DNA of 60,243 bases, counting the filler, from Jimgerdemannia flammicorona (lineage: Eukaryota): NCBI GenBank assembly GCA_003990765.1. It is 2 parts of 2 records of this genome, joined end to end, with 100 filler letters (N's around TTAATTAATTAA, not from the genome) between each part and the next. Parts side by side here need not be neighbours in the genome. Positions count along the whole stretch, not along the records: positions 1 to 30,073 come from RBNJ01000456.1; 1 more part is not named here. One strand, given 5' to 3'. The position numbers and the translations under genes were made by a program. Of this stretch, positions 3,360 to 42,200 are shown piece by piece (position 1 is the stretch's first letter; each line of letters opens with the position of its first letter). Under the pieces are notes generated by a model, which made no database searches, was not told where the DNA came from, and saw nothing but the letters and a program-made list of their open reading frames with translations.

Positions 3360-3390
3360 ATTGAAGAAATGTTGTAATAGAGACCCTAAC

Positions 3391-6734: not shown

Positions 6735-6855
6735 TGAAGAGGAGGAAAAAGGTCCAGCAGGAGCCAAGGGAGCGAACCCAGAGCCAGTGTCAAAATGAAT
6801 GAAAGACATGTGGAAAGGTGTATATAAGGGGGACGAACAAAGAACGTAACCAACA
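6735..6855 (-). repeat. Outer part of the PLE 3' pLTR (left TIR), separated from 18624-19018 by LINE B
   Basis: Matches 22174-22290 directly and ~22880-22998 in inverted orientation. Confidence 0.9.
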
Positions 6856-9800
6856 CATCTTTCTCCGGTACCATTTGGGTTATACAACCTTTGGAAGGTA
6901 CTCACAACATCATTTTTGGAGCAAAGAGACTAACAACATAGCAACTGATAGGTGAGCTGAGGTGTATACTGGGCAGGGTGGCCCAAGCACTTTTGAATGG
7001 CAGTAAGTTGGGAGGGGCCCAGGCCTGGGGAGGAGCATGAGGGGGCTGCTGGCAGGTGGACAAGGAAGGGGTGGAGGTACTGGTGGAGGTCAGGGGTCTG
7101 GGAGGGCGAGCTTTGCAGAGACAGTGAAGGGGAGGCAGCAGGTATCAGGGCTGGAGGGCTGGCTGAGGAGGGGCAAGGAGAACGAGAAGACAGCAGTGTA
7201 GGGGGGAGTGGCCCTTAGAAGGGGGGATAGTGAAGCTGAGGGAGTAGCAGCTAGGGGGAGTGTGACTACTGATGGCAAAGGGACTGCTAATCTGGAAAAA
7301 AATCCAGATGTAATGACTGTTGGTGAGGCTGAGCGGTTGGGGCTTGGAAGACAAGGAGATTTGGCAGATGGTGTGACAGGCCTGGCAGTGGCCCCATTAC
7401 TCAAGAAATCGATCTCAGCATTTACGGTTACACTGTGCTTCTGGGGCTTAGCGGTGACAGCGAAAATGGTACTGGGACTTATTGCTAAGCAGATGGCAGG
7501 AGCTGCTTTGGTGAAGTTTCTGAAGGGACTGGAGGGTGTGGAGGTGGGTTTTGAGGAGGCTGAACCACTGGAGGAGGCACTGAAGGTTGGGTTGGTGGTT
7601 GGAGAGATGTGTGTTCCAATGGCGAGGTGTTTGAAATGGGATCTGAGAGTGATATAACTTCTGGTGAAAGGAGTACCCATGGTGACAGCAATGAAGATGA
7701 GAAAGAGAGTAGAGGATGTCATGGCAGAGTATGGAGAGGTGGTGGATATTGGATTCAGGGTCTGGGAAGGGACCATGCTCAGGACTGGAGACATGGATAT
7801 GAGGATTTGACTGGCTGGGAAAGAGGCTACTGGGAAGGCAAGGGACTGGCCTTCGGTGATGGTTTGGGGAGCAATCTTGTGTAAGGTGACAAGGGTGAAA
7901 GGAAGTGAAGAAGAGGAAGAAGATTTATTGGAAGCACTAGAAGAACTGGATGGGGCTGTGGAGTGGTGAGCAAAGGCCTAGAAGACTTTCGAGAAGGTGA
8001 TGCACCTGGAGGTGGTGAATGGAAAGAGGGTTCGAGTAGACAAGGTGCAGTGGAAAAGGGCTCAGGGTTGGAAGAGACAGAAGGAGTTGCTGGCTAAACT
8101 GGGGGGTGGACCACAGAAGAATGCAAGCAAGATGACGAGTATGGAAGGGGCCAAAGCGAGCATCTGAGCTGGTGAGAGGAGTGGGAATGATGGGGTGGAG
8201 ACAGGGAAGACAAAAGAGGTGAAGACTAGCAACCCATATACTGATGGCACCTTGGAGGTTTGGGATGAGGTCTAGGAGAACTCCCCCACTCCTTCCCCTC
8301 TTATCAGACATGGCCCGGCTACCAGAAATAAGACTGGGGAGGATGTGATGATGCTGGGACCCAGCAGGTGAAATTTAGCATTCTGGAGGTAATGGATGGG
8401 GATCAAGTAGTGGTGGCTGGGGAGGAGGAACTGGTGGATGTCCCAGAGGTGTGGGATGAGGATGCGAGTGCCAGAGCTGACACCATGATGCTGGATAGAG
8501 GGAGACCAGTGACCCCTGGTGGAAAGGAGGTGGGGAACCTACTTTGGATGTGCAGGATGATGAATAACCTGGCAGTGGAAGAGTTGGGGGAGGTGGACCT
8601 GCATGTGATGGGTGACAAACACTGGATGAGAATTTTGCAGGAGGAAGGAGTGATGATGGCAATGAAGGCAGAAATTCTCACAGTGTATCTGGAGGAGGAA
8701 GGGTATGAGGTGGACAAGAAGCAGGAGGCAGAGATGGCAGTTATCGCTAGAGAGAGGGCTGAGTACTGCTGGAACAAGCATCATAGGCTGCAGCTTTGGC
8801 AGGAGGCATGCATCAAGTACAGAGAGGAGTTTGAGGAGAAGGCTGATGAGGAGATGAATGAGCTGTTGGCTGGATTGGAGGCTCAGAGGGCTGAAGAGAA
8901 GGAGGTGATGGCAGAACATAATCTGGACACAGCACAGGAGGAGATGAGCATAGAGCAGTAGAGATCAACTGAGAACAAATAGTATTTCATTATGAACAGT
9001 ACAACCAACATTTTTTCTTTGAACGTGAATAGGCTAAGGGATACAGTTAGACATCAGAACATTTTCATTTGGCTGAAGGGATTGGAGGCCGATCTCTTCC
9101 TCTTGTAGGACATCAGGTGTGAGGATGATTCTGATAGGATGGAATGGACAAAGGAATGGGGTGGTATGGTGATTTGGAACAGCAAGGTTGGGATTCTGGT
9201 TCAGAAAGGCAGAGGGGAAATAAGGGATGTGAGGAGCTGGGGGGAGAGACTGGTCTGGGGTGAGTGGATTCATGTGGGTTGGGAGCCAGTCATAGTTGGC
9301 TCCTGTTACTGCCCTGCTGTGTGGGGGGAGCATGTGGATTGGGTGAAGAGGCTCCAGGAGAGTGAGATCCTTGCTGAGGCTGGGGTGGATATGCTTGGAG
9401 GAGATTTCAATATGGTTCGAGATATACAGTTGGATAGAACTGATAGAGGATGGAGTGCTGAGAGTAGAAGTGGGGGGCTGGCGATGTGAGAGGAAGTCAA
9501 AAGGCTAGGAGTGCTGGTTGATGCTAGTAGGGAGTTCTGGGGGGACAGGAGGGTATATACGCATTGGGCTAGAGGCCTGGAGACAAGGATTGATTGGATT
9601 CTGATGGCCAACTGTTAGGGCCACAATGTTTGGAAGGTACTAGAGGTGGAATGGTGTCCATGATCAGATCACTGGGGCCTTTTGGGACAGGGATATTTTG
9701 GGGGAAGTGGTGATAGGCCTGGACATTGGTGCCTAAATTCCTCCTTGTTGGATGATGAGTCTCGGTGAGAGGAGTGGGTGAAAGACATTCAGCTGAAGGT

Positions 9801-11267
9801 GGAGAACTAGAGACAAGAAGGGGTCTCAATTGAGGTGTAATGGGTGAGGATGAAAGAGATGGCCAGGATGTACTAGAGTGAGGCTGGCAGAGAGGCAGGG
9901 AAGTAGCATAGGCAGAGAGTACATTGGGCTTCTACTAGATTGGCTAGGCTCCTGAAGGAGTGGGTGAGACTAGCAATAGTGGAGGGAGAAGAGGAGTGGA
10001 GAACAATGAGGGTGAAGATAGAGGTTGGGGAACTACAACAGATGCTGCAGGAAGAGGAAGAGTCAAGGATGCAAGGCCTGATGGCTCGGCTTCATTGGCA
10101 GGGGCTGGAGGAAGGGGAGAGGCCTTCCAAGTTTCTCATGAGGACACTTTGAGTGAGAAGGGTATAACAGCAGTGGGAAGGGGTACTTGATTCAGGTGGT
10201 ATACTAGTGTATGGTGTATAGGAGATCCTTGGAACACTGAAGGAGTGATGGAGTGGACTGTAGAGTGAGGAGGAGGGTGGGGCAGATGCTACAGCCATTG
10301 ACTGAACATTAGAGAATTGGCACCCACTACAAGCTAAGGGACTAGGAGACCTGGTGATGCCTGTAAGGGAGGATGAGATCTACCAGGTTCTTGCTACAAC
10401 AGCCTTGGGTATGGCACCTGGAGAGGATGGCTACCCTGGGACTTCTGGAAGCAAATGGTTGGAGTCCTGGGCATGTTGGGGGAGCTGATGGCACTGTGTG
10501 ACTTTATATTACAGTCGGGGAGATGGGTGGGGGAGCAGGATCTTGGGCTGGTGATGCTGCTTTATAAGAACAAAGGAAGGCAAGAGGATTGGAAGAACTG
10601 GCAGCTGATAATGTTGCTAGATATGGACAGAAAGTTGGTGACTAAGGTGGTGATCACAAGACTACAGAAGGTGGCCCAGCAAATTGTGGGTGTTGAGCAG
10701 AGGGGCTTTATAGGGGGTCGGCTTATTAGAGATGGCACAGCCTGGGTACATGGAGTTATTGAAGGTACTAGAGCCTGTGGACTAGATGGGCATCTTGTCT
10801 TCTTGGACCAGGAGAAGGCTTATGACCGGGTGCAGTAAGTCTGGCTGGTGAAAGTATTAGATAGAATTGGAGTTTCAGTCCCATTTCGGTCAGTGATGGT
10901 CAGCCTACTGGAAGGGAGTAGGGCTGTACTCACATGTAATGGGCATAGAGGGGTAGTATTCCCTCTGGGTAGGGGGGTGCCCCAGGGGGACCCGCTGTCC
11001 CCCATTTTGTATGCTCTTTCCTTAGAACTCCTAATGGACCGAATTTGGCAGAGGATAGTGGGGCTCTCTATCTATAGAGTCGGCTGGAAAGTTGGAGCCT
11101 TTGCAGATGACATAGTGGTTGGTTTGGGAGAGATTGCTGATGTCGAGGAGCTCAAGAAGGCAGTGGAGTAGTATGAGAAGAACTCCATCTTTCTCTGATA
11201 ACATTCAGGTTACACAATCTTTTGGCAATACTTTCGACATAGTTTCTGGAGAAAAGCTACTAGTATC

Positions 11268-13298
11268 ATGGCGATCAACAAGCATCCAGAGGTGCATACT
11301 GGGCAGAGTGGCCCTGGAGCATTTGAATGGCAACAAGTGGGGAGAGGCCCCGGCTTGGGGGGGAGTATGAGGGGCCTGCTGGTGGGAGGCCGCAGTGGTG
11401 GAGGGGGCAGAGCTGAAGGCCAAGGGTCTGGCAGGGTGAGCTTTGCAGAGAAGGTGAAGGGGGGTCAGCAGGGAGCTAGACTGGAGAGCTGGCTGAGAGG
11501 GGGGAAGGTACCGGCAAAGGCTACCAGGCAGCAACCTCTTAGGGGTATCTCTCTGGAGGGCCATAGGGGTGGAGCTGGGGGAGTAGTGGCTGGGGTAGGG
11601 ACTGCTGATGGGGGTGTGATGGGTGATCTGGAAAAAAATCTAGATGGGACTGCTGATGGTGAGCCAAGTGGTAGAAAGGGCACGAGGCCCAGGGACCTGG
11701 CAGATGGTATAATGGGACTGGTGATGGCTCCATTACTCAAGAAGTTGATCTTGGCATTCGCAGTCACACTGTGCTTCCAGGGCTTAGTGGTGATGGCGAA
11801 AATGGTGTTGGGGCTTATTACTAAGCAGGTGGCAGGAGCAGCTTCAGTGAAGTTTCTGAAGAGACTGGAGGAGGTGGAGGTGGGTTTTGAGGAGGTTGAA
11901 CTGCTGGAAGAGGCACTGAAGGTTGGGTTGGTAGTTGGGGAGGTGTGTGTTCTGATGGCGAGGTGTTTGAAATGGGATCTGAGGGTGGTCCAACTGCTGG
12001 TGAAAGGAGTACCCACGGTGATAGTGATGGAGATGAGGAAGAGAGTGGAGGATGTCATGGCGGAGTATGGAGAGGTGGTGGATATCGGATTCAGGGTCTG
12101 GGAAGGGACTACACTCAGGACTGGGGACATGGATGTGAGGATTTGGCTGGCTGGAAAAGAGGCTACTGGAAAGATGAGGGACTGGCCTTCGGTAATGGTT
12201 TGGGGAGTGTTTCTGTGCAAGGTGACGCAGGTGAAAGGAAGCGAAGAAGAGGAGAAAGATTTATTAGAAGTGCTGGAGGAGCTGGATGGAGCTGTAGAAT
12301 GGTGAGCTAAGGCCTGGAAGACTTTCAAGGAGTTGATGCACTTGGAGGTGGTGGATGGAAAGAAGATTTGAGTGGACAAGATGCAGTGAGAAAGGGCTCA
12401 GGGGCGAAAGAGGCAGAAGGACCTGCTGGCTAAACTGGGGGGTGGACCACAGAAGGATGAAAGCATGAAGATGGGTGCAGAAGGGGCCAGAGCGAGTGTC
12501 GGGGCTAGTGTGAGGAGTGGGAACAATGGGGCAAAGACAGGGAAGGCAAAAGAGGTGAAGATTTGCAACCCATATGCTGATGGCACCTTGGAGGTGTGGG
12601 ATGAAGTCTGGGAGAACTCCCCCACTCCCTCCCCTCTTATCAGGCATGGCCTGGCTTCCAGGAATAAGTCTGGGGAGGACATGATGATGCTGGGGACCCA
12701 GCAGGTGAAATTTAGCATTCTGGAGGTGATGAATGGAGACCAAGTAGTGGCGGCTGGAGAGGAGGAACTGGTGGATGTCCTGGAGGTATGGGATGAGGAC
12801 ATGAGTGCTGGAGCTGACACTATGATGCTGGACAGAGAGAGGCTGGTGACCCCTGGCGGGAAGGAGGTGGGAAACCTACTTTGGGTGTGCCAGATGATGA
12901 ATAACCTGGTGGCAGAAGAGCTGGGGGAGGTGGACTTGCATGGGATGGGTGATGAGCACTGGATGAGAATTTTGCAGGAGGAAGGAGTGGTGATGGCGCT
13001 GAAGGTGGAAATTCTTATAGTGTATCTAGAGGAGGAAGGGTATGAGGTGGACAAGGAGAGGGAGGCAGAGTTGGTGGTTATCACTGGGGAGAAGGCTGAG
13101 TACTGTTGGAACAGGTATCATGGGTTGCAGCTTTGGCAAGAGGCTTACATTGAGTACAGAGAGGAGTTTGAGGAGAAGGCTGATGAGGAGATGAATGAGC
13201 TGTTGGCTGGACTGGAGGCTCAGAGGGCTGAAGAGGAGGAGGTGATGGCTGAACATAATCTGGACATGGCACAGGAGGAGAGGGGCATGGAGCAGTAG
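11268..13298 (+). pseudogene. LINE C ORF1
   Basis: ORFs 11268-12305 and 12465-13298 are in the same frame, separated by TGA stops. Homologous to LINE A ORF1. Confidence 0.85.
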
Positions 13299-13327
13299 GA
13301 ATTAATTGAGAACAAACCATATTCATT

Positions 13328-16300
13328 ATGAACAGTACAACCAATATTTTTTCTTTGAACATAAATGGGCTAAGGGGCACAGTTAGATGCAGGAATATTT
13401 TTATTTGGTTGAAGGGATTGGAGGCCAATCTCTTCCTCTTGCAGGATGTCAGGTACGAGGATGATTCCGATAGGATGGAATGGACTAAGGAATGGGGTGG
13501 CATGGCAATTTGGAACAGCAAGGTTGGGATTCTGGTTCAGAAAGGCAGAGGGGAGATAAGTGATGTGAGGAGCTGGGGAGAGAGACTGGTCTGGGGAGAG
13601 TGGATTCATGCAGGTTGGGAGCCAGTCACAGTTGGCTCCTGTTACTGCCCTGCTATGTGGGGGGAGTATGTGGATTGGGTGAAAGGGCTCCTGGAGAGTG
13701 GGATCCTTGCTGAAGCTGGGTTGGATATGCTTGGAGGAGATTTCAATATGGTTTGGGATGTATGGCTGGATAGAACTGATGGAGGATGGGGTGCTGAGAG
13801 CAGGAGTGGGGGGCTGGCAATGTGGAAGGAGGTCAAAAGGCTAGGAGCACTGGTGGATGTTGGTAGGGAGTACTGGGGGGACAGGAGGGTGTATATGCAT
13901 TGGGCTGGAGGTCTGGGGACAAGGATAGACTGGATTCTGATGGCTGACTGTTGGGGCTGTGGTGTTTAGAAGGTGCTAGAGATAGAATGGTGTCCGTGGT
14001 CAGATCACTGGGGCCTTTTGGAATAGAGGTGTTTTGGGGGAAGTGGTGATGGGCCTGGACATTGGCACCTAAATTCCTCCTTGTTGGATGATGAGTCCCA
14101 GTGAGAGGAGTGGGCAAAAGACATTCAGCTAAAGGTGGCAAATTGGTGGCAGGAAGGGGCCACAATTGGGGTTCAGTAGATGAGGATGAAAGAGATGGCC
14201 AGGATGTACTGGAGCGAGGCTGGCAGAGTGGCTGGGAAGCAGTGAAGGCAGAGAGTACATTAGGCTTCTACTAGATTGACTAGGCTCCTAGAGGAGTGGG
14301 CAAGACTGGCTGTAGTGGAGGGAGAAGAGAATTGGAGAATAACAAGGGTAAAGATGGAGGTTGGAGAACTACAACAGGTGCTGCAGGAAGAGGAAGAGTT
14401 AAGAATATAAGGCCTAGTGGCATGGCTTCATTGGCAGGGGCTGGAGGAAGGGGAGAGGCCTTCCAAGTTTCTCTCAAGGACACTTCGAGTGAGAAGGGTA
14501 CAGCAGCGGTGGGAAGGAGTACTTGACTTGGATGATATACTAGTGCATGGTATATAGGATATCCTTAGAATGCTGAAGGTGTGATGGAGTGGATTGTGGA
14601 GTGAGGAGGAGGGTGGGACAGATGCTACAGCCATTGACCAAACATTAGAAGATTGGCACCCACCACAAGCTGAGAGGTTAGGGGACCTGGTAATGCCTGT
14701 AAAGGAGGACGAGATCTGCTAGATTCTTGCCATGACAGCCTTGGGTATGGTGCCTGGGGAGGATGGCCTACTCTGGGACTTCTGGAAGCAAATGGTTGGA
14801 GTCCCAGGCATGTTGGGAGAGTTGACAGCACTGTGTGACTTTATATTGATGGGTGGGGGAGCAGGATCTTAGGCTGGTGACGCTGCTTTATAAGAACAAA
14901 GGAAGGTGAGAGGATTGGAAGAACTGGCAGCCGATTATGTTACTAGATATGGACAGAAAGTTGGTGACTAAGGTGGTGGTCGCAAGGCTACAGAAGGTAG
15001 CCTGGCAAATTGTGAGTGATGAGCAGAGGGGCTTCATAGGAGGTCGGCTTATTAGAGATAGCACAGCCTGGGTACATGGAGTTATTGAAGGTACTCGAGC
15101 CTGTGGACTAGATGGGCATCTTGTCTTCTTGGACCAGGAGAAGGCTTATGACTGGGTGTGGCAAGTCTGGCTGGTAAAAGTATTAGATAGAATTGGGGTT
15201 CCAGTCCCATTTTGGTTGGTAATGGTCAGCCTACTGGAAAGGAGTAGGGCTGCACTCATGTGTAATAGGCATAGAGGGGTAGCATTCCCTCTGGATAGGG
15301 GAGTGCCCCAGAGGGACCCACTGTCCCCCATTTTGTATGCACTTTCCTTGGAACCTCTAATGGACAGGATTTGACAGAGGATAGTAGGGCTCTCTATCTA
15401 TAGAGTTGGCTGGAAAGTTGGAGCCTTTGAAGATGACATGGTGGTTGGTTTGGAAGTGACTACAGATGTCGAGGAGCTCAAGAAGACAGTGGAGTGGTAT
15501 GAGGAGAACTCTGGGGCGAAGCTGAATTGGCACAAGTACGAAACAATGGTGCTGGGCAATGGCCTGGTGGGTGGAGAAGTTATTGGAACAATTGTCTCCA
15601 CCAGAGAGGCAGTGTGGTACTTGGGCATCTATTTGTTGGTCTATGGATCTGTTCTGCCCAGGCTGTGGTGGGAGCAGAGGATTGGAATTTGGGAGAAGGA
15701 CCTGCAGAGTTGGGGGGGAAGATACTTCTCTCTGGCAGGAAGGATCTCAATTTTGAATATATACTGGCTGCCAAAGCTGTGGTATTTGGCTTATCATCTG
15801 GACTTCCCAGCCTGGGTGGTGAAGAGATTGGTGAAAGTAGCCAAGGGATGGATTTGGGCTGACAGACAGAGTCAGATTGGTTGGGAGACTTTGTCCCTAC
15901 CAGTGGCAAGAGGTGGTCTTGGGCTGGTGGACTTCCCCAAGAGACTACACTGCTTGAGGGCATGGTGGCTTAGGAGGGCAGTGGAGTTGTGTGGAGGGGG
16001 CTGGGTTCCCCTGCTGCAGATGGTATAGAAGAGGCAGTCATCACCAAGAGGCTTGACTGGTGATCTTCTTTCATTAGTTGGGCTTCAGAACACTGCACAA
16101 CTGAGATATAAAGGCTTCTGGTGGGGGATAGCTGAGGGGGTACACTGCATTGGTATTCACTGGCAAGGGGATGAGGGGGAGAGGGCTTGGGGTCCAGCAA
16201 TGTGGAGATGGAATGGTATTCTTCTGGGAGGTATGCCTTTACTTGAGTTCAATATTGGTGATGGAATCAAATACCAAAGGGGACCGGGCCAGGATCTGTG

Positions 16301-16974
16301 GCCTAGTGGTTGACAAGGAGTTAGAATTGGTAAGGAGTGGGACTAGCATGGGGTTTGGACCTGGAGTGCTGCAGTGAAAAATTAGATGCCACTGAAGTAC
16401 TGGGTGGTCTGGTGGCATGTGCTGAGGAGGAATGTAATGCTTAACTTCTGCTCAGGACACCTTGTCATAGGGGGCTACTTTGACTGTGAGGAGTGCCATA
16501 ATGTAGGGCAGGAAGGGAGATTTGTACAGATGCCAGAACATTGGCTAGGGGAGTGTGAGGTGTTGGGAGACTTTTGGTAGGCCATTGGAGACCGCTTGGG
16601 GGTAAGGCGTAGGGGAGATGATGTACAGGGGAGGTGGGAGGACCTGAGGGATCGATTGATAGGAGGGGTAGGGGAGGAGTAGATTACTCTAGGCTGGGCA
16701 TTGGCAATTTGGGTTGGGCTGGCTGGTCACTGGCTATTTGTATTTGAGGAGGAGAGGCGATAGAGCTTGGAGAGCTGGTTATCACGGTGGCAGTACCTTA
16801 TGGAGGATATCTTGACAGGCTGGTGGCTTGGTTGGGGTGGTAGAGGGAGTTGGAGGTGCCACTTAGTGGTGAAAATCTGTGGTCAGAGTAGTGGGAGAGT
16901 TGGAGTTATTAGTGAGAGGGTGGTCTTTGTATGTAAAGAAATGGGGAGGGGCCCCCTGATGGGGATTGGATAGT
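13328..16974 (+). pseudogene. LINE C ORF2: APE endonuclease, RT and C-terminal Cys/His finger
   Basis: FSLNINGL, LQDVR, GGDFN, TRIDWIL, SDH, DQEKAYD, GVPQRDPLSP, AFEDD, CEEC...EHWLGEC. Confidence 0.92.
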
Positions 16975-17032
16975 AGGTGGTGATATTGTATACTTATTCA
17001 TAGACTAATAATAAAGACAGAGTCCAAGGGAC

Positions 17033-17067
<35 letters not shown>

Positions 17068-18623
17068 GAGGAGAACTCTGGAGTGAAGCTGAATTGGTAC
17101 AAATGTGAAACAATGGTGCTAGGCAATGGTCTGGTGGGAGGAGAGGTTATTGGAATGATTGTCCCTACCAGAGAGATGGTACAGTACTTGAGCATCTATT
17201 TGTCAGTCTATAGATCTGTTCTATCTAGGCTGTGGTGGGAGCAGAGGGTTGGAATCTGAGAGGAGGACCTGCGGGGTTGGGGGGAAGACACTTCTCTCTG
17301 GCAGGAAGGATCTCGATTTTGAATGTATACTGACTGCCAAAGCTGTGGTATTTGACTTATCATCTGGACTTCCCAGCCTGAGTAGTGAAGAGATTGGTGA
17401 AGGTGGCCAAGGGATGGATTTGGGCTGGTAGACAGGGTCAGATTGGTTGGGAGACCTTGTCCCTACTGGTGGCGAGAGGTGGTCTTGGACTGGTAGACTT
17501 CCCCAAACGACTACACTGCTTGAGGGCATGGTGGCTTAAGAGGGCAGTGGAGTTACAAGGAGGGGGTTGGGTTCCCCTGCTGCAGAAGGTCTAGGAGAGG
17601 CGGTCATCACCAAGAGGCTTGACTGGTGATCTTCTTTCATTAGTTGGGCTTCGGAACACTGCACAATTGTGATATAAAGGCTCCTGGTGGGGGATAGCAG
17701 AGGGGGCACACCATATTGGTATTCACTGGCAAGGGGATGAGGGGGAGAGGGCTTGGGACCCAGTGATGTGGAGATGGGATGGCATTCTACTGGGCAGCGT
17801 ACCTTTACCTGAGTTCAACATTAGTGATGGAGTAGAATGTTAGAGGTGACCAGGCCAGGATCTGTGGCCTAGTGGTTGGCAAGGAGTTGGAATTGGAGAG
17901 AAGTGGAACTGGTATGGAGTTTGGATCTGGAGTACTACAGTGAAAAAATGGATGCCGCTGAAGTACTGAGTGGTCTGGTGGCGTATGCTGAGGAGGAATG
18001 TGATGCTTAACTTCTGCTCAGGATACCTTATCATAGAGGGCTGCTTTGACTATGAGGAGTGCTTTAATGTAGGACAGAAGGGGAGTTTTATACAGATGCC
18101 AGAACATTGGCTTGGAGAGTGTGAGGTGTTGGGAGGCTTTTGGTGGGCCATTGGGGACTGCTTGGGGGTGAGGCGTAGGGGAGATGATGTAAGGGGGAGG
18201 TGGGAGGACCTGAGGGATCGATTGGTAGGAGGGGTAGGGGTGGAGTAGATTACCCTAGGCTGGGCATTGGCTATTTGGATTGGGCTGGCCAGTCACTGGC
18301 TATTTGTATTTGAGGAGGAGAGGCGACAGAGCTTGGGGAGCCAGTTATCACAATGGCAGTACCTTATGGAGGACACCTTGACAGGCTGGTGGCTTGGTTG
18401 GGGGCTGCAGGGGGGTCAGAGGTACTGCTTGGTGGTGAAAATCTGTGATCAGAGTGGTGGGAGGGTTGGAGTCATTGGTGAGAGGGTGGTCTTTATACAG
18501 AAAGAGGTGGGGAGGGGCCCCTCTATGGGAATTGGATAGTGGATAGTGATATTGTATACTTATTTATAGACTGGTAATAAAGGTGAAGTCCAAGTGACTA
18601 TAAAAAGGAAAAAAAAAAAAAAA

Positions 18624-19018
18624 GTAACAAAAAATGCATCAGCCATTTATTGCCATGTAAAAACATAGTCCTTATATACAAAATATGACATCCCAAATGG
18701 GAGGATGTGCTACAACTTGGGGCAAACCGAATTAGGAACCACATGATCACCAGAGATAGGCAGAGATAAAGGGGGAGCCAATCTCAGTTGTAGGATAAAA
18801 ATCACAAACAAACACAAACAAAACAAATCCAAATCGAGATTAAAAAACATCTGCAGACCCTGGAGGGGTAAGCATGAGCAAGGGGTGAGGCTGAAACAGA
18901 GCGAGCCACAGTGAGCCCAAGTGAAGTGAGGGGCCAAAGGCAGCAGAGGAGAGTGGAGTAAGGCCGAGACCCCAGAGTGAGCACGAGACCCCGGAGGGGG
19001 CAAGGATGTTTTTTAATC
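18624..19018 (-). repeat. Inner part of the PLE 3' pLTR, including a 14-bp inverted repeat and a 153-bp loop
   Basis: Direct repeat of ~22282-22676. GATTAAAAAACATC (18838-18851) pairs with GATGTTTTTTAATC (19005-19018). Confidence 0.92.
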
Positions 19019-19019
19019 C

Positions 19020-21030
19020 TCTCCAGCAACCAGAAGTACCAGAAGGTGACGAAAATGCAAAATGAGAGTGATGGATTAAAGAAGAAATAGAAGGAAGATG
19101 TGAACAAGCAATCAGAGGGCGTCGAGAAAGAGATGAAAGTCCATGGTATAAAAGAGAAGAGTGCAGGACAGTATCAGGGTGTTAAGCAATCCAGTGAGTA
19201 CGATCAAATAGTATGACAAGAATTGGGGGTGGGAAAAAAGAGAGGGTATGGAGAGAGTAAGGGGGGAGGGAGGGAAGGAAGGGGGGGTAAAGAGGAGAGA
19301 GTAGGGAAGAGTGAACAACAGACCATTCAATAGAAGCAAGCAGATTGCGAATAATAAAAATAGAGTAGGCATGACAATGGACCACAAAGTTGCCAAGAAC
19401 CTGAATAGCAGACACCCAATCAGAATGACAGGAGCAGCATAGTGCAAGATGATGAGCCTCACTACGAATGCATTCAAGAAGAGTGTGATAAGGATGATTG
19501 AACAAGAAGTCAGGGAACTGTTGGGAACAGGGAAAATGGGAATAAACAACAGTTCGGAAAGGAGAAAGAGAAATGGAAAGGTCCAAAAAGGGGATACTAG
19601 TCATACTGCACACCCAGGTAATAGAATTGTGGGGAGGGTAGATGCCCAGGAACACACTAGGGATATCAATACCAGCAACAGTGAAGACAATAAAGTCATC
19701 AATATATCAGCGAAAGAAGATATCCCCAGCCCAGAACACAATGGAAAGAGGTGAAGTAATATCATATAACGTACACAATTCATGGGCCAGACCAATAAGG
19801 TTGGCAAAGGTGGGGGTACAATTCATTTCCATGGCAATATCAGAAGTCTGGTGAAAGGAGCCAAGGGCCAACTCAAAATAATTAGAGCTGTAGATGAGGA
19901 GCGTAAGCTCAACAATGGAAGCCAGTGAAACTGGGGAATCCAAAGGAAAAACAATAGAACCCAGGAAGCAAAGGCAATCATTGATCTCATCAAAACAAAT
20001 AGCAGTATAAAAGAAAGAGAAGTCACCAGAGGCCAAATGGGAAAAATGGTGGACAGGCACAATGGTGGAGCAGAGAAGGGTGAGCTCCTGAGTATTATGA
20101 AGAATGGTATACTCAGGCCCAAGATGGTGTTGTAAGAGAGCCATCCAGGAGAGAAAGAAGTGAGATAACCACTTCGAAATCTCAGTGGTAGGAGAACTGT
20201 AAGCAGCCATAATGGGATGCCAAGCCAAAATAGGCTTGTGAACTTTAGGAAGAGTATAAAAAACCAGAAGAGAAACATCCGGGGAGGACAAAGAGTCCTG
20301 AAAGAAGTTAAAAATGGGGTTCACGAATGGAGAGTCCAAAAGCAACCTAGCACAAGCCAGAGAAACCTGAAGAAGAGTGAGAATCTCATCCAATCCAAGA
20401 GCACTAGGCTCATAAGCCATGGCTCGAAGGAGGGCAGAAAGGCCATCAAGATAGAGTGACTTAGGAATAAGTGCAAAACCCTGATTCTTATCAGTGACTG
20501 TGAGCAAATGCATAGGCAATTGCTTGACTGATTTAAGCGTGTTATGCACAGCACAGTCTGAAACCAAGCAAGAGCGAGCACGTCTGGGAACAGACAGTGT
20601 GTAGGCCATGTCGAGGAATACATAGTATGAAGAGACATTGGGAGGGGGGACCCAATTGCTAGGAACAAAATAATGAGAGGGTATCTCACCACAATCTTGA
20701 AAGAAAATGGCAAGGTCAAGAGCATGATGAAAATGTGTGAGATGAGCTGGATCAGTGAAAGAGAATTGTGAGGGAGTCATAGGAAAAATGAAACAAGGAC
20801 CCAAGGATAAGGCAAAGACTTGAAGGGGAGAAAGAGGGTAGTCAGCCAGAGAAAAAAAGGAGGAGATAAAAGAGTTTCAAGAGAAGAGTAAACCCGAAAG
20901 TTCAGGACAAGCAACTGGGAAAGGCGAAGGGGGGACAATATGAGGAACCACTCAGGGCACACCAGAAGCGACGACGGAATCCGAGAAGGGATGGAGACAC
21001 CAGGGGAGAACTATGCCAGGGGGAAGTTTA
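19020..21030 (-). pseudogene. Penelope-type reverse transcriptase without a GIY-YIG domain
   Basis: One frame with a few stops: LSPLQVFALSLGPCF, TDKNQGFALI, FYTLPKVHK..WHPI, SGDFSFFYTAI, FHQTSDIAMEMNCTPTFANL, FR*YIDD (YIDD at 19695-19706), IPFLDLSI, thumb HPYH..IRSE, and terminal PLIACSHLPSISSLI. Confidence 0.9.
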
Positions 21031-22245
21031 AGAGCAGGAGGCCTTCCCCTTCCCTCTGACTTTTTTTGAAGGTGGTGAGCCCGACAAATGGGAGCACACC
21101 CCATCAGAGTACCAGACCTTGTGGCTACAGGCTTTCGTGCAGCCCTTACATTCAGGGGTATGGGTGGAGGAGGTGGAGGAGGAACTGGCAGAGGAGGCCA
21201 AAGGCGAGTGAGCAGCCGAAGGGGCAGCAGTATGAGGAACACCACCATGAGGACAGACAGACTTAGCCAGGTGCCAGTAGGCATGGTGGAGGCAACCGGA
21301 GCAGACAGCATAAGGCCAGGCCCTGACAGGGCAAGAACCAAGTTGGTGGCCATGTTTGGGGGCAGGGGGAACAGAGGAGGAAGCCTTGGTGGGAGAGGGA
21401 GACTGGGAAGAGGCCGATGAAGCTTGATTGGGCTTGGCAGGAGTCTTGGCAGGGGTCTTGGAGGGGGCCTTGGTAGCAGCAGTGGTGAAGAAATGAACCT
21501 CAGCACAAGCAGTAGTATGAGCTTTAACACAAATGGCCTTGGAGACTGAAACCTCAGGGGAGGCAGGCAGGGGGGTAGTGGTGGTAGCACGAGCAGCAGC
21601 AGTAGCATGTGACATCTCCTGCTTGTGAAGGCAAGCAACAAAAGAGGTGCTAGTGAGGAGAAAACAATGCACAGCATTGATGTTGGTGGTGACAGAAGAA
21701 ACATCTTGGATGGTGAAGCTACAGAAGGGGGCAGCATCTGAAAGGTGAGAGGAGGTGAAGGTCACAAAGGCAGCACAGGCATGGTGGAAGGAGACAGAAG
21801 TAGTGGTGGCAGAAGTGGCAGTAGCATCAGTGGTGGCAAGCTTGGCAGTAGCAGTGGTGGCACAAACCTCTTCAGAGAGGGCTTGGCAGTGGGCCTCAGA
21901 GAGAATGGAGTAGCAGATGGTGGGTGGAGCAATGACATCAATGTCATGGCAGAGATGAGCCTCCTTGGCAGAGAGGGTAAGAACCAACCAGAACTGGGAG
22001 AGGAGCAAATGACCAGAGGGACGAAGGTCCAAGGGAAGGGAAAGGATGGCAGATGAGATGTAGGTCTTGAATGAGACAGTGGTGGGGGTGAAGGTGGGGG
22101 GAGGAGGAGGAGGAAGAGCCTCATCCATGAGCTTGTCAATAAAGATGGAGGCCCTGAGAGCAGGCAGTACAGCAGAGGAGGAAGAAGGCCCAGCAGGAGC
22201 CAAGGGAGTGAACCCAGAGCCAGTGTCAAAATGAATGGAAGACAT
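21028..22245 (-). CDS. PLE ORF1: Ala/Thr-rich helical region, Pro/Lys linker, two Cys/His clusters, basic tail
   Basis: Uninterrupted ~405-codon frame from the ATG at 22245 (MSSIHFDTG), which lies inside the pLTR. Contains CSGCLHHAYWHLAKSVCPH and CKGCTKACSHKVWYSDGVCSH. Confidence 0.7.
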   Translation of the reverse strand: MSSIHFDTGSGFTPLAPAGPSSSSAVLPALRASIFIDKLMDEALPPPPPPTFTPTTVSFKTYISSAILSLPLDLRPSGHLLLSQFWLVLTLSAKEAHLCHDIDVIAPPTICYSILSEAHCQALSEEVCATTATAKLATTDATATSATTTSVSFHHACAAFVTFTSSHLSDAAPFCSFTIQDVSSVTTNINAVHCFLLTSTSFVACLHKQEMSHATAAARATTTTPLPASPEVSVSKAICVKAHTTACAEVHFFTTAATKAPSKTPAKTPAKPNQASSASSQSPSPTKASSSVPPAPKHGHQLGSCPVRAWPYAVCSGCLHHAYWHLAKSVCPHGGVPHTAAPSAAHSPLASSASSSSTSSTHTPECKGCTKACSHKVWYSDGVCSHLSGSPPSKKVRGKGKASCS

Positions 22246-22998
22246 GTAAAAAGGTATATATAAGGGAGACAAATAAAGAATATAACCAAAAATGCATCAG
22301 CCATTTATTGCCACATAAAAACATGGTCCTTATATACAAAATATGACATCCCAAATGGGAGGACGTGCCACAACTCGGGGCAAACCGAATTAGGAACCAC
22401 ATGACTGCCAGAGATAGGCAGAGATAAAGGGGGAGCCAATCCCAGTTGCAGGATAAAAATCACAAACAAATACAAACAAAACAAATCCAAATTGAGATTA
22501 AAAAATATCTGCAGACCCCGGAGGGGTGAGTATGAGCAAGGGGTGAGGCTGAAACAGAGCGAGCCGCAGTGAGCCCAAGCGAAGTGAGGGGCTGAAGGTA
22601 GCAGAGGGAAGTGGAGTAAGGCCAAGACCCCAGAGTGAGTATGAGACCCTGAAGGGGGCAAGGATGTTTTTTAATCTCAATTTGGATTTGTTTTGTTTGT
22701 ATTTGTTTGTGATTTTTATCCTGCAACTGGGATTGGCTCCTCCTTTATCTCCACCTATCTCCAGTAATCATGTGATTCCTAATTCGGTTCACTCTGAGTT
22801 ATGGTACATCCTCCCATTTGAGATGTCATATTTTGTATATAAGGACTGTGTTTTTACATGGCAATAAATGGCTGATGCATTTTCAGTTACATTCTTTGTT
22901 CATCCCCCTTATATATGCCTTTCCACATGTCTTCCATTCGTTTTAACACTGGCTCTGGGTTCACTTCCTTGGCTCCTGTGGACCTTCTTCCTCCTTCA
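22174..22998. repeat. Large hairpin: PLE 5' pLTR plus inverted copy (arms 22174-22509 and 22663-22998, loop 22510-22662)
   Basis: The arms are reverse complements with scattered transitions. Confidence 0.93.
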
Positions 22999-26462: not shown

Positions 26463-26661
26463 TACTAGTCAACCCCAAAATCTTAAAATATAATTATTTT
26501 TATATAATTAAATTGAAATACTTATCATAAAATCCCTCTGATATGGTACTTTGAAAGTAGGTGTTGGAAAGCTTAAGATATGGCAGATACTTTAAAAGCA
26601 AGTACTTTGAAAGCTTAAAATATAGCAGGCATTTTGAAAGTGAGACAGATATTGTCAGAGT

Positions 26662-27121
26662 TAGTACTCCTAACAAATCGAATTGAATTAAATTGGACCT
26701 AAATTTGATTCAATTTAAAAACTTCAAATCAAATTGAGGCCCAATTCAATTCAAATCAATTCAAATTGAGGTCCAATTCAATTCAAGGTCCAATTAAAAC
26801 TCTATTTTTAGAAATTAAATAACTTGATGAATATACATCCAAATTCAATGCTCTTTAGCTTGTTAGATTCCTATTATATAGGGAAATCTAACAGGCTAAT
26901 GATCATTGAATTTGGACATATATTCGTCGAGTTATTACATTTCTAAAAATATGTTTTGAATCAGACCCTCAATTCAATTTGAATTTGATTCAATTTGAAC
27001 TCAATTTGAATTTAATTCGATTTGAACTCAATTTTGAATTGAAAAATCCCCAATTCGATTTAATTTGAATAATCCTCAATTTGATTCAATTTAAATTGAT
27101 TCAATTCATTTGGGAGCACTA
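26662..27121. mobile_element. hAT-family MITE copy 1
   Basis: TIR TAGTACTCC…GGGAGCACTA. 8-bp TSD gtcagagt/gttagggt. Internal palindrome. Confidence 0.85.
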
Positions 27122-27363
27122 GTTAGGGTGGATACTTTGAAAGTAGGATAGATATCATCAAAGTATCATAGATATGGTCATGAGTTATGGGAATTATACT
27201 AAGAGTTGTGTCGAAAACAGAAAGCTTAAGATATGGCAAGTGCTTCAAAAGTGGATAATTTGAAAACTTAAGATATAGCAGATATGGGCACTTTGAAAGC
27301 TTAAGATATGGTGGAAACTCTAATCTAAAATATATAAATGAGTATTTCTAATATGAAAATTTC

Positions 27364-27400
<37 letters not shown>

Positions 27401-27456
27401 CCTCTTCCTCTCCCTATATCAATCTTCATATACTTATTAAAGATCTTACCAGAGCA

Positions 27457-28014
27457 TTGCAGAAAATAAACCAGAGAATCTATAAAGTCTTCAGCCAGCT
27501 TAATGAAGAAAACAAGTCTAGAGTTAAATATAAGAAAATAAGAATGAAGATTACTGAGGTGATTCAAGAATTCGATCTAGATATAAATAAAGCATTCAAG
27601 GCCAAACCTACTACTACTGCTATTGATCTAGATATAGATGAAGTATTTGAGACTGAACCTACTGTTACTACTACTACTACCCTAAATACTACTGCTGCCA
27701 TAGTCTCCAACACTGCTATAGTCCCCAATGCTACTACTGTCATAGCCTCCAATACTGCCACTACTATAGTCCCCAATACTGCCACTGCTATAGCCCCCAA
27801 TACTACTGCCCCCAATGCTGCTACCATTGATATTTCAGACTCAGACATTGAAGTGGAGGATGATGTACTTACTACTATTGAGATTTCAGATTTAGACATT
27901 AAAGTGGAGATCAATAATATGTTTGAAATTTCTGATAATAATACTCCAGATATTATAATTTTGAGTGATGAGGAGGTTCCAGTTTCAAAAAGAGATCATC
28001 TATATATCAGTTGA
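27457..28014 (+). other. Low-complexity Thr/Ala/Asn repeat ORF inside the hAT 3' region
   Basis: 185-aa frame with repeated (I/V)(V/A)PNTAT units and duplicated IDLDIDE / IEISD motifs, preceded by a poly(A) run. Confidence 0.35.
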
Positions 28015-28608
28015 GGCAATATAGAAAGAAATATAGTATAATATCTCAAATTTGTCAGAAGATCAACCCCTTGACTCTGAATCTATCTCTCTAAAAAAAA
28101 GCATACAATAATACTCATTGAGCAGTAGTAGCTAGATATAAGAGAAATCATTAATAGCCTATATTATTGATAGTCTAGTCTGTATATTGTAATTAATAAA
28201 ATTTTTATAATATTATTATTCAAATAAAGCCTCCATTTGATTCAACCCTAATTAAATCAAAGCTCTATTCGATTTGACTTTAATCAAATTAAAACTCCAT
28301 TCAATTTGACCCTAATTGAATTAAGGCTCCATTTGATTTGACTTTCATTCAATTTGACTTCTATTTGACTTGAAAAAATCTCAATTCAATTTGACTTTTC
28401 AGATCTCTCATTCAATTTGACTCAATTTCATTTGATTCATTTGTAAGCACTAATTATAATCTTTGAATAATATTACAATTAAAATATTACATAATGTAGC
28501 TTATAATAATTTATAGCTTAAATTTTATAGTTTTTAAGCTAACATATCTTATTATTATTATTTAACAATTTAAAATAAAAATATCTATTATTGATAAAGT
28601 TAAAAGAT

Positions 28609-37101: not shown

Positions 37102-39271
37102 CTAAAAGTGATACTTAAACTATATAGTCACAATAGATAATTAAAACTCAGTACTTTCTCATATAAACTTAGAACTTGGAGCTGATAGTTATTTTGATTA
37201 TCTATAATATATTAATTCTATCAGTATATAGTTTTATTATAATTTGATAGCAGTAGAAGTTACTCCTATCTACAAGCAAGCTTCTTTTAAGAAACCCATC
37301 ATAAATATAGAAAACTTAGTCAAATTACTAATATTATCAGTAATAATCAAAGAATATCTTTACTCTGACTACTCTCTAGAACTAAGCTAAAGAAATCAAT
37401 AGAATTATCACTAAATAGATCAAAATCCATATTAGTAAAGAGGAATTTGACAGACTCAACAACAAAACTATCTAAGAAGTATTTAATATATTTATTATGC
37501 TCAATAAAGAAGTTGCCCATACTCATAGAATTAGAAAGAAATTTGAAAAATTAATTGATAGTTATTTCTATAAAAATATACATTAAAGCTATAAGTAAAT
37601 ATTTTCTTACTATAAAGCTAAGACCTTCCTGAACTATAAAAAATATTACACTAACCAAAAGAAATTCTATCTCTACTACTGAGTCTTCTATATATAAGCC
37701 AAGATAATCTAATAGTGAGGATTATAAACTACTGGAATTAGTAAGTCTCTATTATATTATCTTAATCTAGAATAATAGTTAAAAAAATACCTAAATCTGA
37801 TACTATTGACCCCAGTACTACTATAGACTCATTATTAAGAATATCAAGTCTATCAAAAATCACTATAAGAGATTTAGTAATAACTTTATCAAAACTATCA
37901 ATCTATAAACTGGTTACTAAGTTTATCTAACTTAATATATTATAGAAGAAATAATTATATATTATACTATCTCTAAAGTAATAATATCTGAAAAAAGACT
38001 ACTACTATCCTATTATATAAGTAATAGAATGATATCAGCAGATAAAAAGATAGTATCTCTGACTGACTAAGTAGCCATACTTATCTAAGTCCTTTATCTT
38101 AGTATTGAAATAAATAAACTCATAAAAGGTCTCTAACTTATATCATTTAAAGATAAAACAGACTAAGTAATAATATTTATAAGATAAGTTAATACCAATT
38201 ATCATATTAATAAATGAAATAATAATTGAAATCCAGATAGTACTCTCAATAGTAATAATTACTATAAGATTGAAGATCTCTATATAACTATAGACTTACA
38301 AATAGAGAAGGTTACTACTTATTTACAGATATAGCTACTCAGTGATAGTACAATCTTTCAGTATACCTTCTCATCTGGAAAACCTATATTAAAATTGATA
38401 TACATAAGTGAAGAAGATGACAATCACTCTGACTATGAAGTCTACTTAGCTACTTTAGGCCTAAAAGAGCTGATCATCCAATAGTTTCACAGCTCTGTCC
38501 ATATTACTAAAGTCAGAACTAAGCTCAAGAATCTCTGATTCTATAATAATAGAAAAGAAAACTTAGAAGTATTTATAATAAGATTAAAAATCCTTCTGAA
38601 TACTATAGAAGTATAATATAGTCAATGAGAACATACTCTGAATGAAACCAGAGCAGTATACTTCTTTGATACTATCTCTGGTGTGATGGTACAGCCAAAT
38701 TTGGAAGAAGGAAATAGGGAATAGACACTTGATCGCACCCAGTCCCAAAGTAGTATAGTCTTATAGTTAGCAGTCCTCAATTTCGATATTGTCTAAATTC
38801 TTAGACATTGTCTAAATTTTAGACATTATCCAAATCAAACATCCTGATTTAGTATAGCATTTAGATATTGTCCAAATATTTCGACAAAGTCCAAATAACT
38901 CATTTATTACTTAGCCACCTTCGCATAGCTAGCAAACTTGTATAAATAACCCAGTATCTTGGAGTGAATAAACCTCAGATCGAAATAGTTCAAAGCAAAG
39001 AGATAGCAAAGGAACTAGTAAGCCTGCAGGCAGATACACTTCAAACTCACTCACTCTCTCCTACAACTTCAAGAGACTCTGCAAGAGTCAGAATGGTCAA
39101 GTTTTCAAGATACAGAAATCCGACATACTTTTAAGAGTAAGCATCCACTATGTTACAACTTGGTGCCCATTGGCTGGTGATTCAAGATGAATCCCTCACT
39201 TTCAAGCTGAACAATGAACAACCACCACTATCTGAAGAACCATACAAACTGAGCCCCAATACTCAGACAAG

Positions 39272-42200
39272 ATGGATATGAGACCATCAGTATTCCATAG
39301 ATATACCTCAGATGAATCAATCATCACCTTCATTGATGATTTTGAGCAGTATGCTGCTGTAAGGACTCTGACAGCAGCACAGCAAGTAGCCCTCATGCCC
39401 TTCAGCCTACAAGGCCCTGCTAGAGCAGCATTCACAGCTGTAACCCATGCAGGAAATGATGCCAATACCATACTGACAGCACAGAAGACCTGGCTCTGAA
39501 ATACATATTACACAGATGAGATCAAGCAAGCCCTGAAGGATTAGCTCAATACAACATGTCAAGGAATGAGCAAGGATCCAAACACATTCTATACCTGAAT
39601 TAGATATCAGATAATTCTTGCAGATTATGCTGCTGCTATCCAAGATCAAGTAGCCAAAGCAACTTTCATGAAAGAAGTCCATCCAGAAATAGCCATGGCC
39701 ATCTGCTCATCACCAGTGATTCTGGATCTGCCACAGAAGGTCACCTATGCTCAGCGATACTAGATAGCCAGATACCCACAAGACCATATAATGGAGAGAG
39801 TTACAGGAGTCAGAATCGAGGCACCCAAGGCAACCAGTATGATCCCCACCACAATGATCAATTGAAACACACCTCAGCCAAAAGCTACCGAGCAGCAAAA
39901 GAACAGTGACCCTATGGAGGAACTCGCCAAAAGGTTTGCTGAAATAACTGCCCACCTGGGAGATGTGGTAAAGGAAATCCGAGGAAGAGATCACCACCCT
40001 GTTCAGAAGTTTGCTGCCATCTCAGACAAGAAGAAAGGTACCTGCTATAGCTGTGGAGAAGAAGGCCACTACTCCTATGAATGTATGAGTGAAACCAAAC
40101 ACAAGGCTCAACCAAGCAATGCTACATGAAACAAGGAGCAGGCCAATACAATCACCTTTGAAGAAATCGGAGAATCCAATGAAGAGGAATGGGAGGCCTA
40201 TCCTGCTCAGACCACCAAGAAAGATGCTCGCAAAGAACCCTACAAGAGACTGCCAGGAAGACTGAAGAAGAACCCAGTGGAAAAGCAGATGGAAACTGAC
40301 ACAGAAAGCCAAGCTGAGGAGATGGACCAAGATACCGAGCTGGAGCAAGCAGTTCAAGAGGAACCACTCCAGCCAGTGAAGGAGAAAAAGAAAAGAAGCT
40401 TCGCAAGACCAAGACCTTCAAGTATGATATCTTCAAGGATCTCAGTCAATAAAAGGTCAATGCAACCTTTGGTCAGCTTACAGAAATCCCAACATTTAGA
40501 CAGCAAATGAGGTTTGGACTTGCCGAAACAACTAAGGAACAAGAATGGAAGATAACTGAGGTCAATAATATTCAAGAGGACTCAGGAGAAGAAAGTGAGG
40601 ACAATTGCAAAACCTCTGCTTATGCAACATGCCAAATCGAAGATAGAACCTTTGAAGCCATCATTGATACAGGAGCAGAAGGATGTCTTCTCAGTAAGAA
40701 GGCAGCAGACCACCTAGATTGGGATGTGGAAGAGACAACTAAGTTAGTATTCGTCACAGCTGATGGCACAAGAGCCACACCTCTGGGAAAGATCTGAGAT
40801 GTTCCCATCAAGATCGGAGGAGCAACAATCTCAGTAGATGTAATCATAACCAATGCCACCAACTATCACATCCTCATCGGCAATCAATGGCTTCACAAAG
40901 CCAAAGTGGTAATCGATCTCAATGCTCAGAAGATGCAGATCACCTACCGGGGACAAAAGATACGAATTTCCATCAATATCAACAAAGGAGTCCTGCCCGA
41001 TATAGAGGAAGAAGAGAGTGAGCAAGAGGAAGCTTATATGGTGACTACCCCAAAGAAGAAGAAAGTTGGATAGATGAGTGAAGAAGAATGGTGCAAAAAG
41101 ATCGCAGAAGGTTATGCCCCACAAGGAGTCTGTCCTCATGGAATCAAGATGTATTGTATGAAGTATGTCAATGATTGCTACCAGTGCACCATCAGAACCA
41201 GGAAGATCTATCAGGAAAGAAGGCAGAAAGCTCTCGAAAAACAGACCAGAGAAGAAGAGAAGGAGGAAGATGATGAACCACCAGCCCTCCTGGAGGACAG
41301 TGATGATGAAGAAGAAATCAAGGTCAAGATTCGAAAGATCCACCCTGATGCAGTCTTGCCAGAATACAAGTCAGAAAACACAGCTGAAATGGACATCACT
41401 ACAGTAGAAGAAACTGTACTAGAATTCCAGACAACTACCCTACTCACAACTAAACTAGAGATGACCATCCCAAAGGATCATGTCAGGATTCTCAAGACAA
41501 GAAGCAGCCTGGCTAGAAGTAAAATCACAATCGAAGGAGGAGTCATTGATTCAGACTATACTGGAGAAATTCTACTCATTGCTAGGAACCACAATCCTAC
41601 AATTCCATTTTCAGTCAAGAAGAAGGACCAATTGGCACAGATGTTGATCTTCCCAATCATACAGCCAAGGATCATAGAAGTCAAGAATCTGGAGGAAACG
41701 AAAAGAAGAAAGAAAGGATTCGGATCCATAGGAAGAGGAGTATTCGCCAGCACCAAGATCACTGAACTTGAGCATAAGAAGGAGGAAAACACAAGCAAGC
41801 ACAGTTACATCATTGGAGACGAATTTCCACTCAAGGAGAAACTCAAGAAAATACTCCACAAATTCGAGGATGTCCTTGCCACAGATTTCAAGGATATTAA
41901 GGGAAAGACCCCACACTACTATCATGAGGTAGATATCGGAGATACTGAACCAATTTATCAGAAGGCAAGACCTGTCCCGCCAGCCTACCAAGAATGGCTC
42001 AGAGAAGAAATCAAGCAAATGGAAGAAGCCGGCATCATCAAAGAAGCCAGCAGCCCCTGGTCTTCACCAGTTGTACTAGTTCCGAAAAAAAGAAGCAAAC
42101 CTGAAGAATTTACCCCAAGGCTCTGTGTCGACTATAGAAAGCTCAATGCAGTTACCAAGAAGGATTGCCAACCACTGCTGCTCATCAGTGACATCCTTAT

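Follow-up and report, generated by a model that had tools for sequence, protein, structure and literature searches.

Organization of the Element and its Surroundings

The window (the whole stretch of DNA analysed, 60,243 nt, from Jimgerdemannia flammicorona) carries on its minus strand a mobile element whose parts follow in the order loop and arm at the 5′ end, ORF1, reverse transcriptase (RT), and second loop and arm; the plus strand of the window is antisense to these ORFs and has the polarity of first-strand cDNA. At the 5′ end, a central loop of 153 nt, present here as a CpG-decayed copy (22510..22662, plus strand), forms the spacer between two inverted arms (334 bp). It is closed by a stem of 15 bp, whose 5′ half lies at 22496..22510 and whose 3′ half, where the switch into the inverted arm most often occurs, lies at 22662..22676 (both plus strand). 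The direct arm (22176..22509, minus strand) harbors a TATA-like box, the putative promoter, as well as the 5′ UTR and the first codons of ORF1, and the inverted arm (22663..22995, plus strand) terminates at a near-fixed site that it shares with the 3′ end of the element. The ORF1 frame (21028..22296, minus strand) encodes 422 residues with a Cys/His-rich C-terminus and has no Pfam match. The RT, of the type found in Penelope-like elements (PLEs), occupies 19013..20876 (minus strand) and displays the motifs DKN, GIAMG, and YIDD; it is interrupted by stops in the window, and other copies hold a frame of 696 aa. Its stop codon (19013-19018) falls within the closing stem of the 3′ repeat. This 3′ pseudo-LTR (pLTR; 18635..19018, minus strand) comprises a closing stem, a loop (18852-19004), and part of an arm, the remainder of which (6738..6853, minus strand) is separated from it by an array of four LINE-like copies.

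Homologues of the RT carry PF00078, PF28514, and PF26215, and one also carries the GIY-YIG domain PF01541; 3014 relatives were found at E ≤ 0.001, and the nearest named one is a Racocetra protein. No GIY-YIG endonuclease was found in the element, its 696-aa frame giving only a weak RVT_1 match and ending at the repeat. ORF2 has no match among solved structures, neither ORF contains a tyrosine recombinase or RNase H domain of the DIRS type, and the element has no ORF for a Rep/NS1-type nickase and encodes no nuclease. It is an endonuclease-less PLE, an assignment that its RT, its direct and inverted pLTRs, and its partial tandems fit. A first look at genome G000 (231 Mb) yielded 786 loop candidates and 928 RT candidates, of which 40 and 106, respectively, were scored. 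This family (family 1) and a second one (family 2, described below) are both dispersed, with hundreds of copies. Contigs from a single soil metagenome run account for each of the 30 bins of the element; no RNA run was among the matches listed for it in sequencing runs, and no relative of it was found among viral contigs.

Several other repeats share the window. The LINE-like array within the 3′ arm of the PLE (6856-18635) consists of two copies of about 4.3 kb and two of about 1.6 kb in tandem; two of the four have poly(A) tails, and a duplication of roughly 7 nt is present. As LINE 3′ ends also adjoin PLE arms at three other loci (L004, L015, L029), both types of elements may favor each other's ends. 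An older, inverted relative of the array, 64-71% identical to it, lies at 1-5000. Off contig C456, two diverged Ty3/gypsy-like LTR elements (38682-54740) include an ORF in which a dUTPase is joined to an RT (41074-42333), and Copia-type gag and pol fragments are found at 58189-59783. AT-rich, foldback-like repeats made of short TTCAA-type units are present at 26567-28456 and 51709-52080.

A Predicted Rod in the Central Loop

The loop had been described in an earlier note, made from the sequence alone, as a purine-skewed cluster of GNA-triloop DNA mini-hairpins with no hammerhead. The words on which this description rested are present: ACCCC-GGA-GGGGT at 22515-22527, CCC(C/T)-G(G/A)A-GGGG at the opposite end, and, in decayed form, GCC-GAA-GGC and GCGAAGC. 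The 5′ copy of the window has three C-GNA-G words vs. 0.74 expected (p = 0.02), and the 3′ copy has one vs. 0.72. In L027, a natural copy that matches the majority consensus over the loop and that was used as the CpG-intact copy, there are 10 such words vs. 3.15 expected, a count reached in none of 2000 shuffles. Local stems of at least 2 bp flank only four of these 10 (0.87 expected, p = 0.01). Independent mini-hairpins were not confirmed, since the two CCCC-GGA-GGGG ends pair together in a long rod, of which most GNA words form internal loops. The purine skew proved to be element-wide rather than a trait of the loop, with 71% purines in the loop and 67% in the whole cDNA strand.

The antisense strand of L027 is predicted to fold into a single rod that continues the 15-bp closing stem and ends in a GCGAAGC tip and a second, GAA-capped ear. 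The model, drawn by hand, has 41 pairs (40 Watson-Crick and one G·T), arranged in short G-C helices that are spaced by GA/GA, GA/GNA, and GNA/GNA loops, so that C-GNA-G and pyrimidine-G(N)A-purine internal loops, the words of GNA mini-hairpins and sheared G·A zippers, are present in register. The model leaves 71 bases unpaired; T is absent from them, and all but three (68) are G or A. In the window copy, the 41 model pairs consist of 30 Watson-Crick and 11 G·T pairs. Five of the helices have at least 4 bp; their 5′ strands (loop positions 7-10, 14-18, 21-24, 31-35, and 38-41; 22516..22550, plus strand) are spaced by GA and GGA, and their 3′ strands are at loop positions 111-114, 118-122, 130-133, 137-141, and 145-148 (22620..22657, plus strand). 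The tip (22574..22590, plus strand), with a 3-bp stem, a tandem GA, and the GCGAAGC mini-hairpin, is decayed in the window copy. The second ear (22591..22599, plus strand) reads GCC-GAA-GGC in intact copies and is found only in family 1.

With a score that takes G·A pairs into account, the antisense strand of family 1 reached 17.25, vs. a shuffle mean of 4.4 (0/671), and the sense strand 1.6. This score was tuned on L027, an initial, stricter version having picked up no more of the positive control than its tip, and family 2 therefore serves as the independent test. When the same stem words were reordered, the observed value was reached in 2/298 cases for the GA-aware score and in 0/298 for both Watson-Crick pairing only and RNA energy. 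With the stems fixed, 20 of the 26 unpaired segments read G..A vs. 5.8 expected (0/100000); with the first G of each segment also fixed, the expectation rises to 16.5 (p = 0.036). Support for the nested order of the rod is thus good; the excess of G..A segments, considered by itself, is modest.

Folding the loop both as DNA and as RNA, a check proposed in the earlier note, gave a divided answer. With RNA parameters, the same outer helices were obtained for family 1, and the antisense strand stood out (z = -4.55, vs. -0.18 for the sense strand), whereas DNA energy parameters yielded no excess stability (z = +0.70 for family 1 and -1.02 for family 2). According to the available text of a review on mini-hairpins, current parameters cannot explain these motifs, and GNA triloops closed by C-G are much more stable in DNA than in RNA (PMC13037366). 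Sheared G·A pairs are described as folding CGAG blocks (PMC10085684). The antisense strand is, from its base order, capable of forming the rod, the sheared geometry of which is a prediction. Across 85 loops of family 1, differences occur at 20.8% of the positions in CpG sites and at 1.2% of the others, and no covariation was found within the family. Deletions in L253, L256, L260, and L340 take out precisely the tip ear (17 nt, in two cases) or else the entire apical part between repeated GGCC words; either skipping over a folded hairpin or repeat slippage could explain them.

As had been claimed, no hammerhead was found in family 1: a core descriptor was blank on both strands of the consensus, and it detected three of four control loci (L082, L129, and L143, but not L081). 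In family 2, it gave one weak match, away from the repeats. Covariance models from Rfam returned no relevant match; they missed the control hammerheads too and had no HDV control, and this blank therefore says little, also with regard to the HDV models.

Conservation in a Second Family and in Distant Relatives

Family 2 came to light in G000 when a distant protein was used as the query. Its RT shares about 40% identity with that of family 1, and its loop and arm have no BLAST match to family 1. It shows the same layout, with arms of about 510 bp, a spacer of 166 nt, and whole-element palindromes. Its antisense strand reached a rod score of 24.0 vs. 4.5 (0/427), and the sense strand 2.75; C-GNA-G words number 11 vs. 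3.2 expected, with none on the sense strand. The apical half of its rod is a G·A zipper, the outer half is a bulged Watson-Crick helix, and there is no second ear. With RNA parameters, its two strands are alike (z = -2.8 and -2.9). The proposal of a structured signal on the strand of cDNA polarity, with GNA triloops of the DNA type, thus holds and extends to a second family.

A 13-nt tip, C GA GC GAA GC GA G, is identical in family 1, family 2, and the metagenome locus L129, and the pair next to it is C-G or G-C depending on the lineage. In the comparison across families that the earlier note had suggested, the design and the tip are kept, and three sequences gave a single compensatory pair (not significant, 145/500 shuffles). 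Tips with other letters had two matches in the same genome vs. five in the control. Among 77 distant loci, only L129 has a strict zipper, with at least two GA loops (0 in 20 shuffled sets), and L143/L144 have a looser rod. The zippers of L129 and L143/L144 lie on the cDNA strand and adjoin telomere-type repeats, and hammerhead cores are also present there. At L129:1106-1134 and L143:558-614 (minus strands), which belong to distant telomeric PLEs lacking an endonuclease, a small zipper with a GCGAAGC tip directly follows a telomere-type repeat on the cDNA strand, possibly as part of a wider signal. GNA triloops were not supported as a general trait of PLEs and were not clearly enriched in 62 clusters of distant relatives (30 with stems of at least 5 bp vs. 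20.3 expected). Two other PLE relatives (L137:1902-2012 and L140) have palindromes that share a word in the stem and whose mismatch loops draw on a single class of bases; the two are oppositely oriented. In a quick tree (45 rows, long branches, no named references), families 1 and 2 form one group, to which L129, L143, and the telomeric L081 do not belong.

Footprints at Head-to-Head Junctions

The head-to-head junctions of family 1 comprised 99 distinct cases. Of these, 84 cross into the inverted arm within the closing stem, two have one-base indels, three have deletions, and 10 switch inside the loop. Six of the latter were retrieved by a search that had a copy of this kind as its seed, and the other four belong to about 87 junctions chosen regardless of this feature. 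To remove this seeding bias, the genome was searched with two symmetric patterns (gap 60-170 nt), which returned 17 junctions where the antisense 3′ side of the loop is replaced by the complement of its 5′ side and one with the reverse (p = 1.4e-4). The registers of the 17 are 7-10/145-148 (four), 14-18/137-141 (five, plus one with a one-base slip), 21-24/130-133 (four), and 38-41/111-114 (three). Four of the five rod helices are thus used, exactly in 16 of the 17 cases and off by one base in the other. The loop offers 30 possible helices of at least 4 bp, 17 of them within pattern range (five of the rod and 12 off-rod); none of these 12 is used, and the chance of four distinct registers all lying in the rod is 0.002. 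The lone reverse junction is likewise in a rod helix, and each family has one such junction. The registers of local end hairpins lie outside the range of the genome-wide patterns and occur at none of the 99 junctions; near-perfect palindromes may drop from the assembly.

In family 2, where the junction set was seeded with an overwritten copy, 22 of 33 junctions lie in the outer stem, six (probably seven) have the antisense 3′ side overwritten at the inner stem, one shows the opposite direction, and the remainder consist of indels or complex cases. On the evidence of these sequences, the strand bias and the exact registers of the 17 junctions show that the 3′ part of a strand of antisense polarity has repeatedly paired in the rod register and been extended in vivo, with either the 5′ part of the same strand or that of another copy as the template.

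The layout of the arms was established for 98 junctions of family 1: 58 long/short, 16 long/long, 10 short/long (with a flipped loop), six short/short, and eight unknown. Long/short is thus the commonest layout (58/90 with both sides known). Neither target duplications of at least 6 nt at the junctions of 16 insertions nor a long one within up to 800 nt were found. Non-CpG variants are common to the arms at 0.43-0.46 within one insertion vs. 0.11 between insertions, a similarity that fits one source and not one particular model. Whether the short inverted arm derives from the 5′ or the 3′ repeat gave a mixed result.

Alternative Explanations

The junctions might have arisen after insertion, by template switching of a host polymerase at a quasi-palindrome; the rod would then fold in host single-stranded DNA and need not act in transposition. 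Template switching is described as homogenizing inverted-repeat arms and inverting spacers (PMC8604942). It would account for the flipped loops (10/90), be favored at central junctions by the long arms, and agree with the CpG changes that certain overwritten segments share with their template. However, the overwritten segments of L279 and L284 lack changes present in the template, and all 17 overwritten loops are central, with arms on both sides, although the pattern also detects terminal-repeat loops, which have the same stem (0/40 overwritten). Moreover, template switching removes G·A loops, which two families have nonetheless retained, and the 17:1 bias would still require a strand-specific fold. 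We regard this origin as unlikely. Quite unlikely, too, is a fold formed by an antisense RNA that would serve as its own primer for reverse transcription, a route suggested for the Penelope elements of Adineta (PMC3846280). Such an RNA has the polarity of the cDNA and fits the 17:1 bias, and RNA parameters prefer the antisense strand in family 1, but the tips in all three lineages are GAA triloops, of the DNA type, and not GNRA or UUCG tetraloops, just one of 41 pairs is G·T, and the TATA-like box appears to be directed away from the central loop.

The invariant tip leaves room for a role of the kind suggested in the earlier note, and the loop may act as an origin, a protein-binding site, or a resolution site. 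That recognition would be the main role, with ORF1, the RT, or a host enzyme of priming or resolution binding the tip and the fold-back secondary, is nevertheless improbable in our view. This reading, by analogy with the phage G4 and ssiA origins and with parvovirus hairpins, draws on the invariance of the 13-nt tip in three RT lineages, which goes beyond what pairing requires, on the small zippers that adjoin telomere-type repeats in L129 and L143, whose contigs show no inverted arm, and on the mini-hairpins known at G4, ssiA, and N4 sites (PMC13037366); the element encodes no nuclease or Rep-type protein, and the footprints at the junctions map to the outer helices rather than to the tip. 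Very improbable is that the loop amounts to a G-quadruplex, to a set of mini-hairpins that fold separately, or to an incidental product of word repetition that plays no part outside the closing stem. In favor of these readings, the sequence allows four local GNA hairpins, GAGC-type words pair with themselves automatically, family 1 has five G runs, and the stricter null for G..A segments gives a weak result. Nonetheless, the nested order outperforms reordered words, the unalignable family 2 retains the design with no G runs, which rules against a G-quadruplex, and the junctions use long-range registers, so that the reading as separate hairpins or a by-product is already largely refuted by the register data.

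Proposed Mechanism and Relation to Known Systems

The loop is a real, strand-specific, and used structure. The reading that we favor, with a probability of roughly 0.6, is that it is a strand-specific fold-back module that serves as the primer for second-strand synthesis in an endonuclease-less Penelope-like retrotransposon. First-strand cDNA would begin at the near-fixed arm end and halt in the loop or just beyond it. Zipped by sheared G·A pairs, the cDNA would place its 3′ end on the closing stem, as a rule, or, in about one case in 20, on an inner helix. Extending this 3′ end would produce the inverted arm and, if continued, head-to-head palindromes of 8-9 kb. In the sense RNA, the same loops would be pyrimidine mismatches, and the template would fold weakly; in the chromosome, the spacer would keep the palindrome imperfect. 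The short inverted arm that stops at a fixed end is unexplained by a simple local fold-back. It would require pairing with a far repeat or with a second cDNA that was primed across a break, and its near-fixed end may be an internal initiation site, as reported for an element of Anolis (PMC11167929).

The closest parallel is found in the elements Pen2a, Pen2, and Pen3a of Adineta vaga, which share with the present element direct pLTRs on both sides of the ORF and an adjacent inverted pLTR (PMC3846280). The junction overlap of Pen2a is 15 bp, like the closing stem here, the pLTR contains a TATA box and the first codons as in the present case, and the junction palindromes were interpreted as self-priming on a molecule of antisense polarity (PMC3846280). 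In contrast, the Adineta palindromes are 18-38 bp long and near perfect, whereas those described here are non-canonical rods of 153-166 nt, and the Adineta elements have a GIY-YIG domain and 8-10-bp target duplications (PMC3846280). In the same source, as far as its available text goes, fungal and protist elements lacking the endonuclease (EN) are said not to share the Adineta organization.

Coprina and Athena elements, compared by description only and with no named reference sequences in the tree, resemble families 1 and 2 in having a PLE-type RT without GIY-YIG, a separate ORF1, and pLTRs (PMC8557442, PMC4209133). They attach to telomeres via reverse telomeric repeats beside a hammerhead (PMC8557442, PMC4209133), whereas families 1 and 2 have neither, are dispersed, and occupy a branch of the tree other than that of the telomeric, hammerhead-bearing rows. 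Neither family consensus contains a CCCTAA dimer, and the flanks are varied and internal. A classical telomeric family is also present in G000 (L081:2555-6180, L082:3790-7430), with a hammerhead-like core and a CCCTAA tail, inserted at internal sites.

The tip and stem of the rod match known DNA motifs, GCGAAGC being a GCGNAGC mini-hairpin and the stem having the same G-C and sheared G·A blocks as CGAG-block hairpins; in the available texts, such hairpins are described from the origins of phages and plasmids and from one phage and one human promoter (PMC13037366, PMC10085684). Plasmid motifs are reported as possibly acting as single-stranded DNA (PMC5737381), and no link to the element was found in the part of that source available. 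In outline, the terminal hairpins of parvoviruses are alike in their fold-back primer, ears, GA/GAA mismatches, flip/flop, and palindromic dimer bridge (PMC1185569). The present element differs in being an RNA-templated transposon with no Rep/NS1 nickase or capsid, and the parvovirus likeness is an analogy only. A wider scenario, which we find doubtful, is that an EN-minus lineage left telomeres and dropped the hammerhead, its DNA intermediate being hairpin-ended and primed by a G·A zipper that would exist only in single strands, and the GCGAAGC tip being a cis signal read by the RT or ORF1. The same tip is found beside the telomere-joining site of distant telomeric elements. If true, the scenario would mean that a eukaryotic retrotransposon has a functional DNA structure built on sheared G·A pairs and a fold-back step resembling that of parvoviruses.

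Significance

The layout, the 15-bp junction overlap, and the self-priming idea are already published for EN-bearing Adineta elements (PMC3846280); new here are the conserved design of the second family and the junction footprints. In the accessible literature searched, no retroelement was found to carry a G·A zipper or a GCGAAGC tip, and family curation files might contain an earlier mention; the main text of a survey of AMF transposons does not mention PLEs (PMC11952901). How PLEs form head-to-head inverted ends and how those lacking an endonuclease could spread away from telomeres are both open in the cited literature. As old insertions record the priming strand and its register, self-priming can be tested with a 181-nt substrate and a defined RT. 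Standard folding programs miss sheared-G·A rods, and similar signals have possibly been overlooked in other mobile elements. If the fold-back module proposed here is real, the loop would be a natural, long, sheared-G·A DNA rod under selection.
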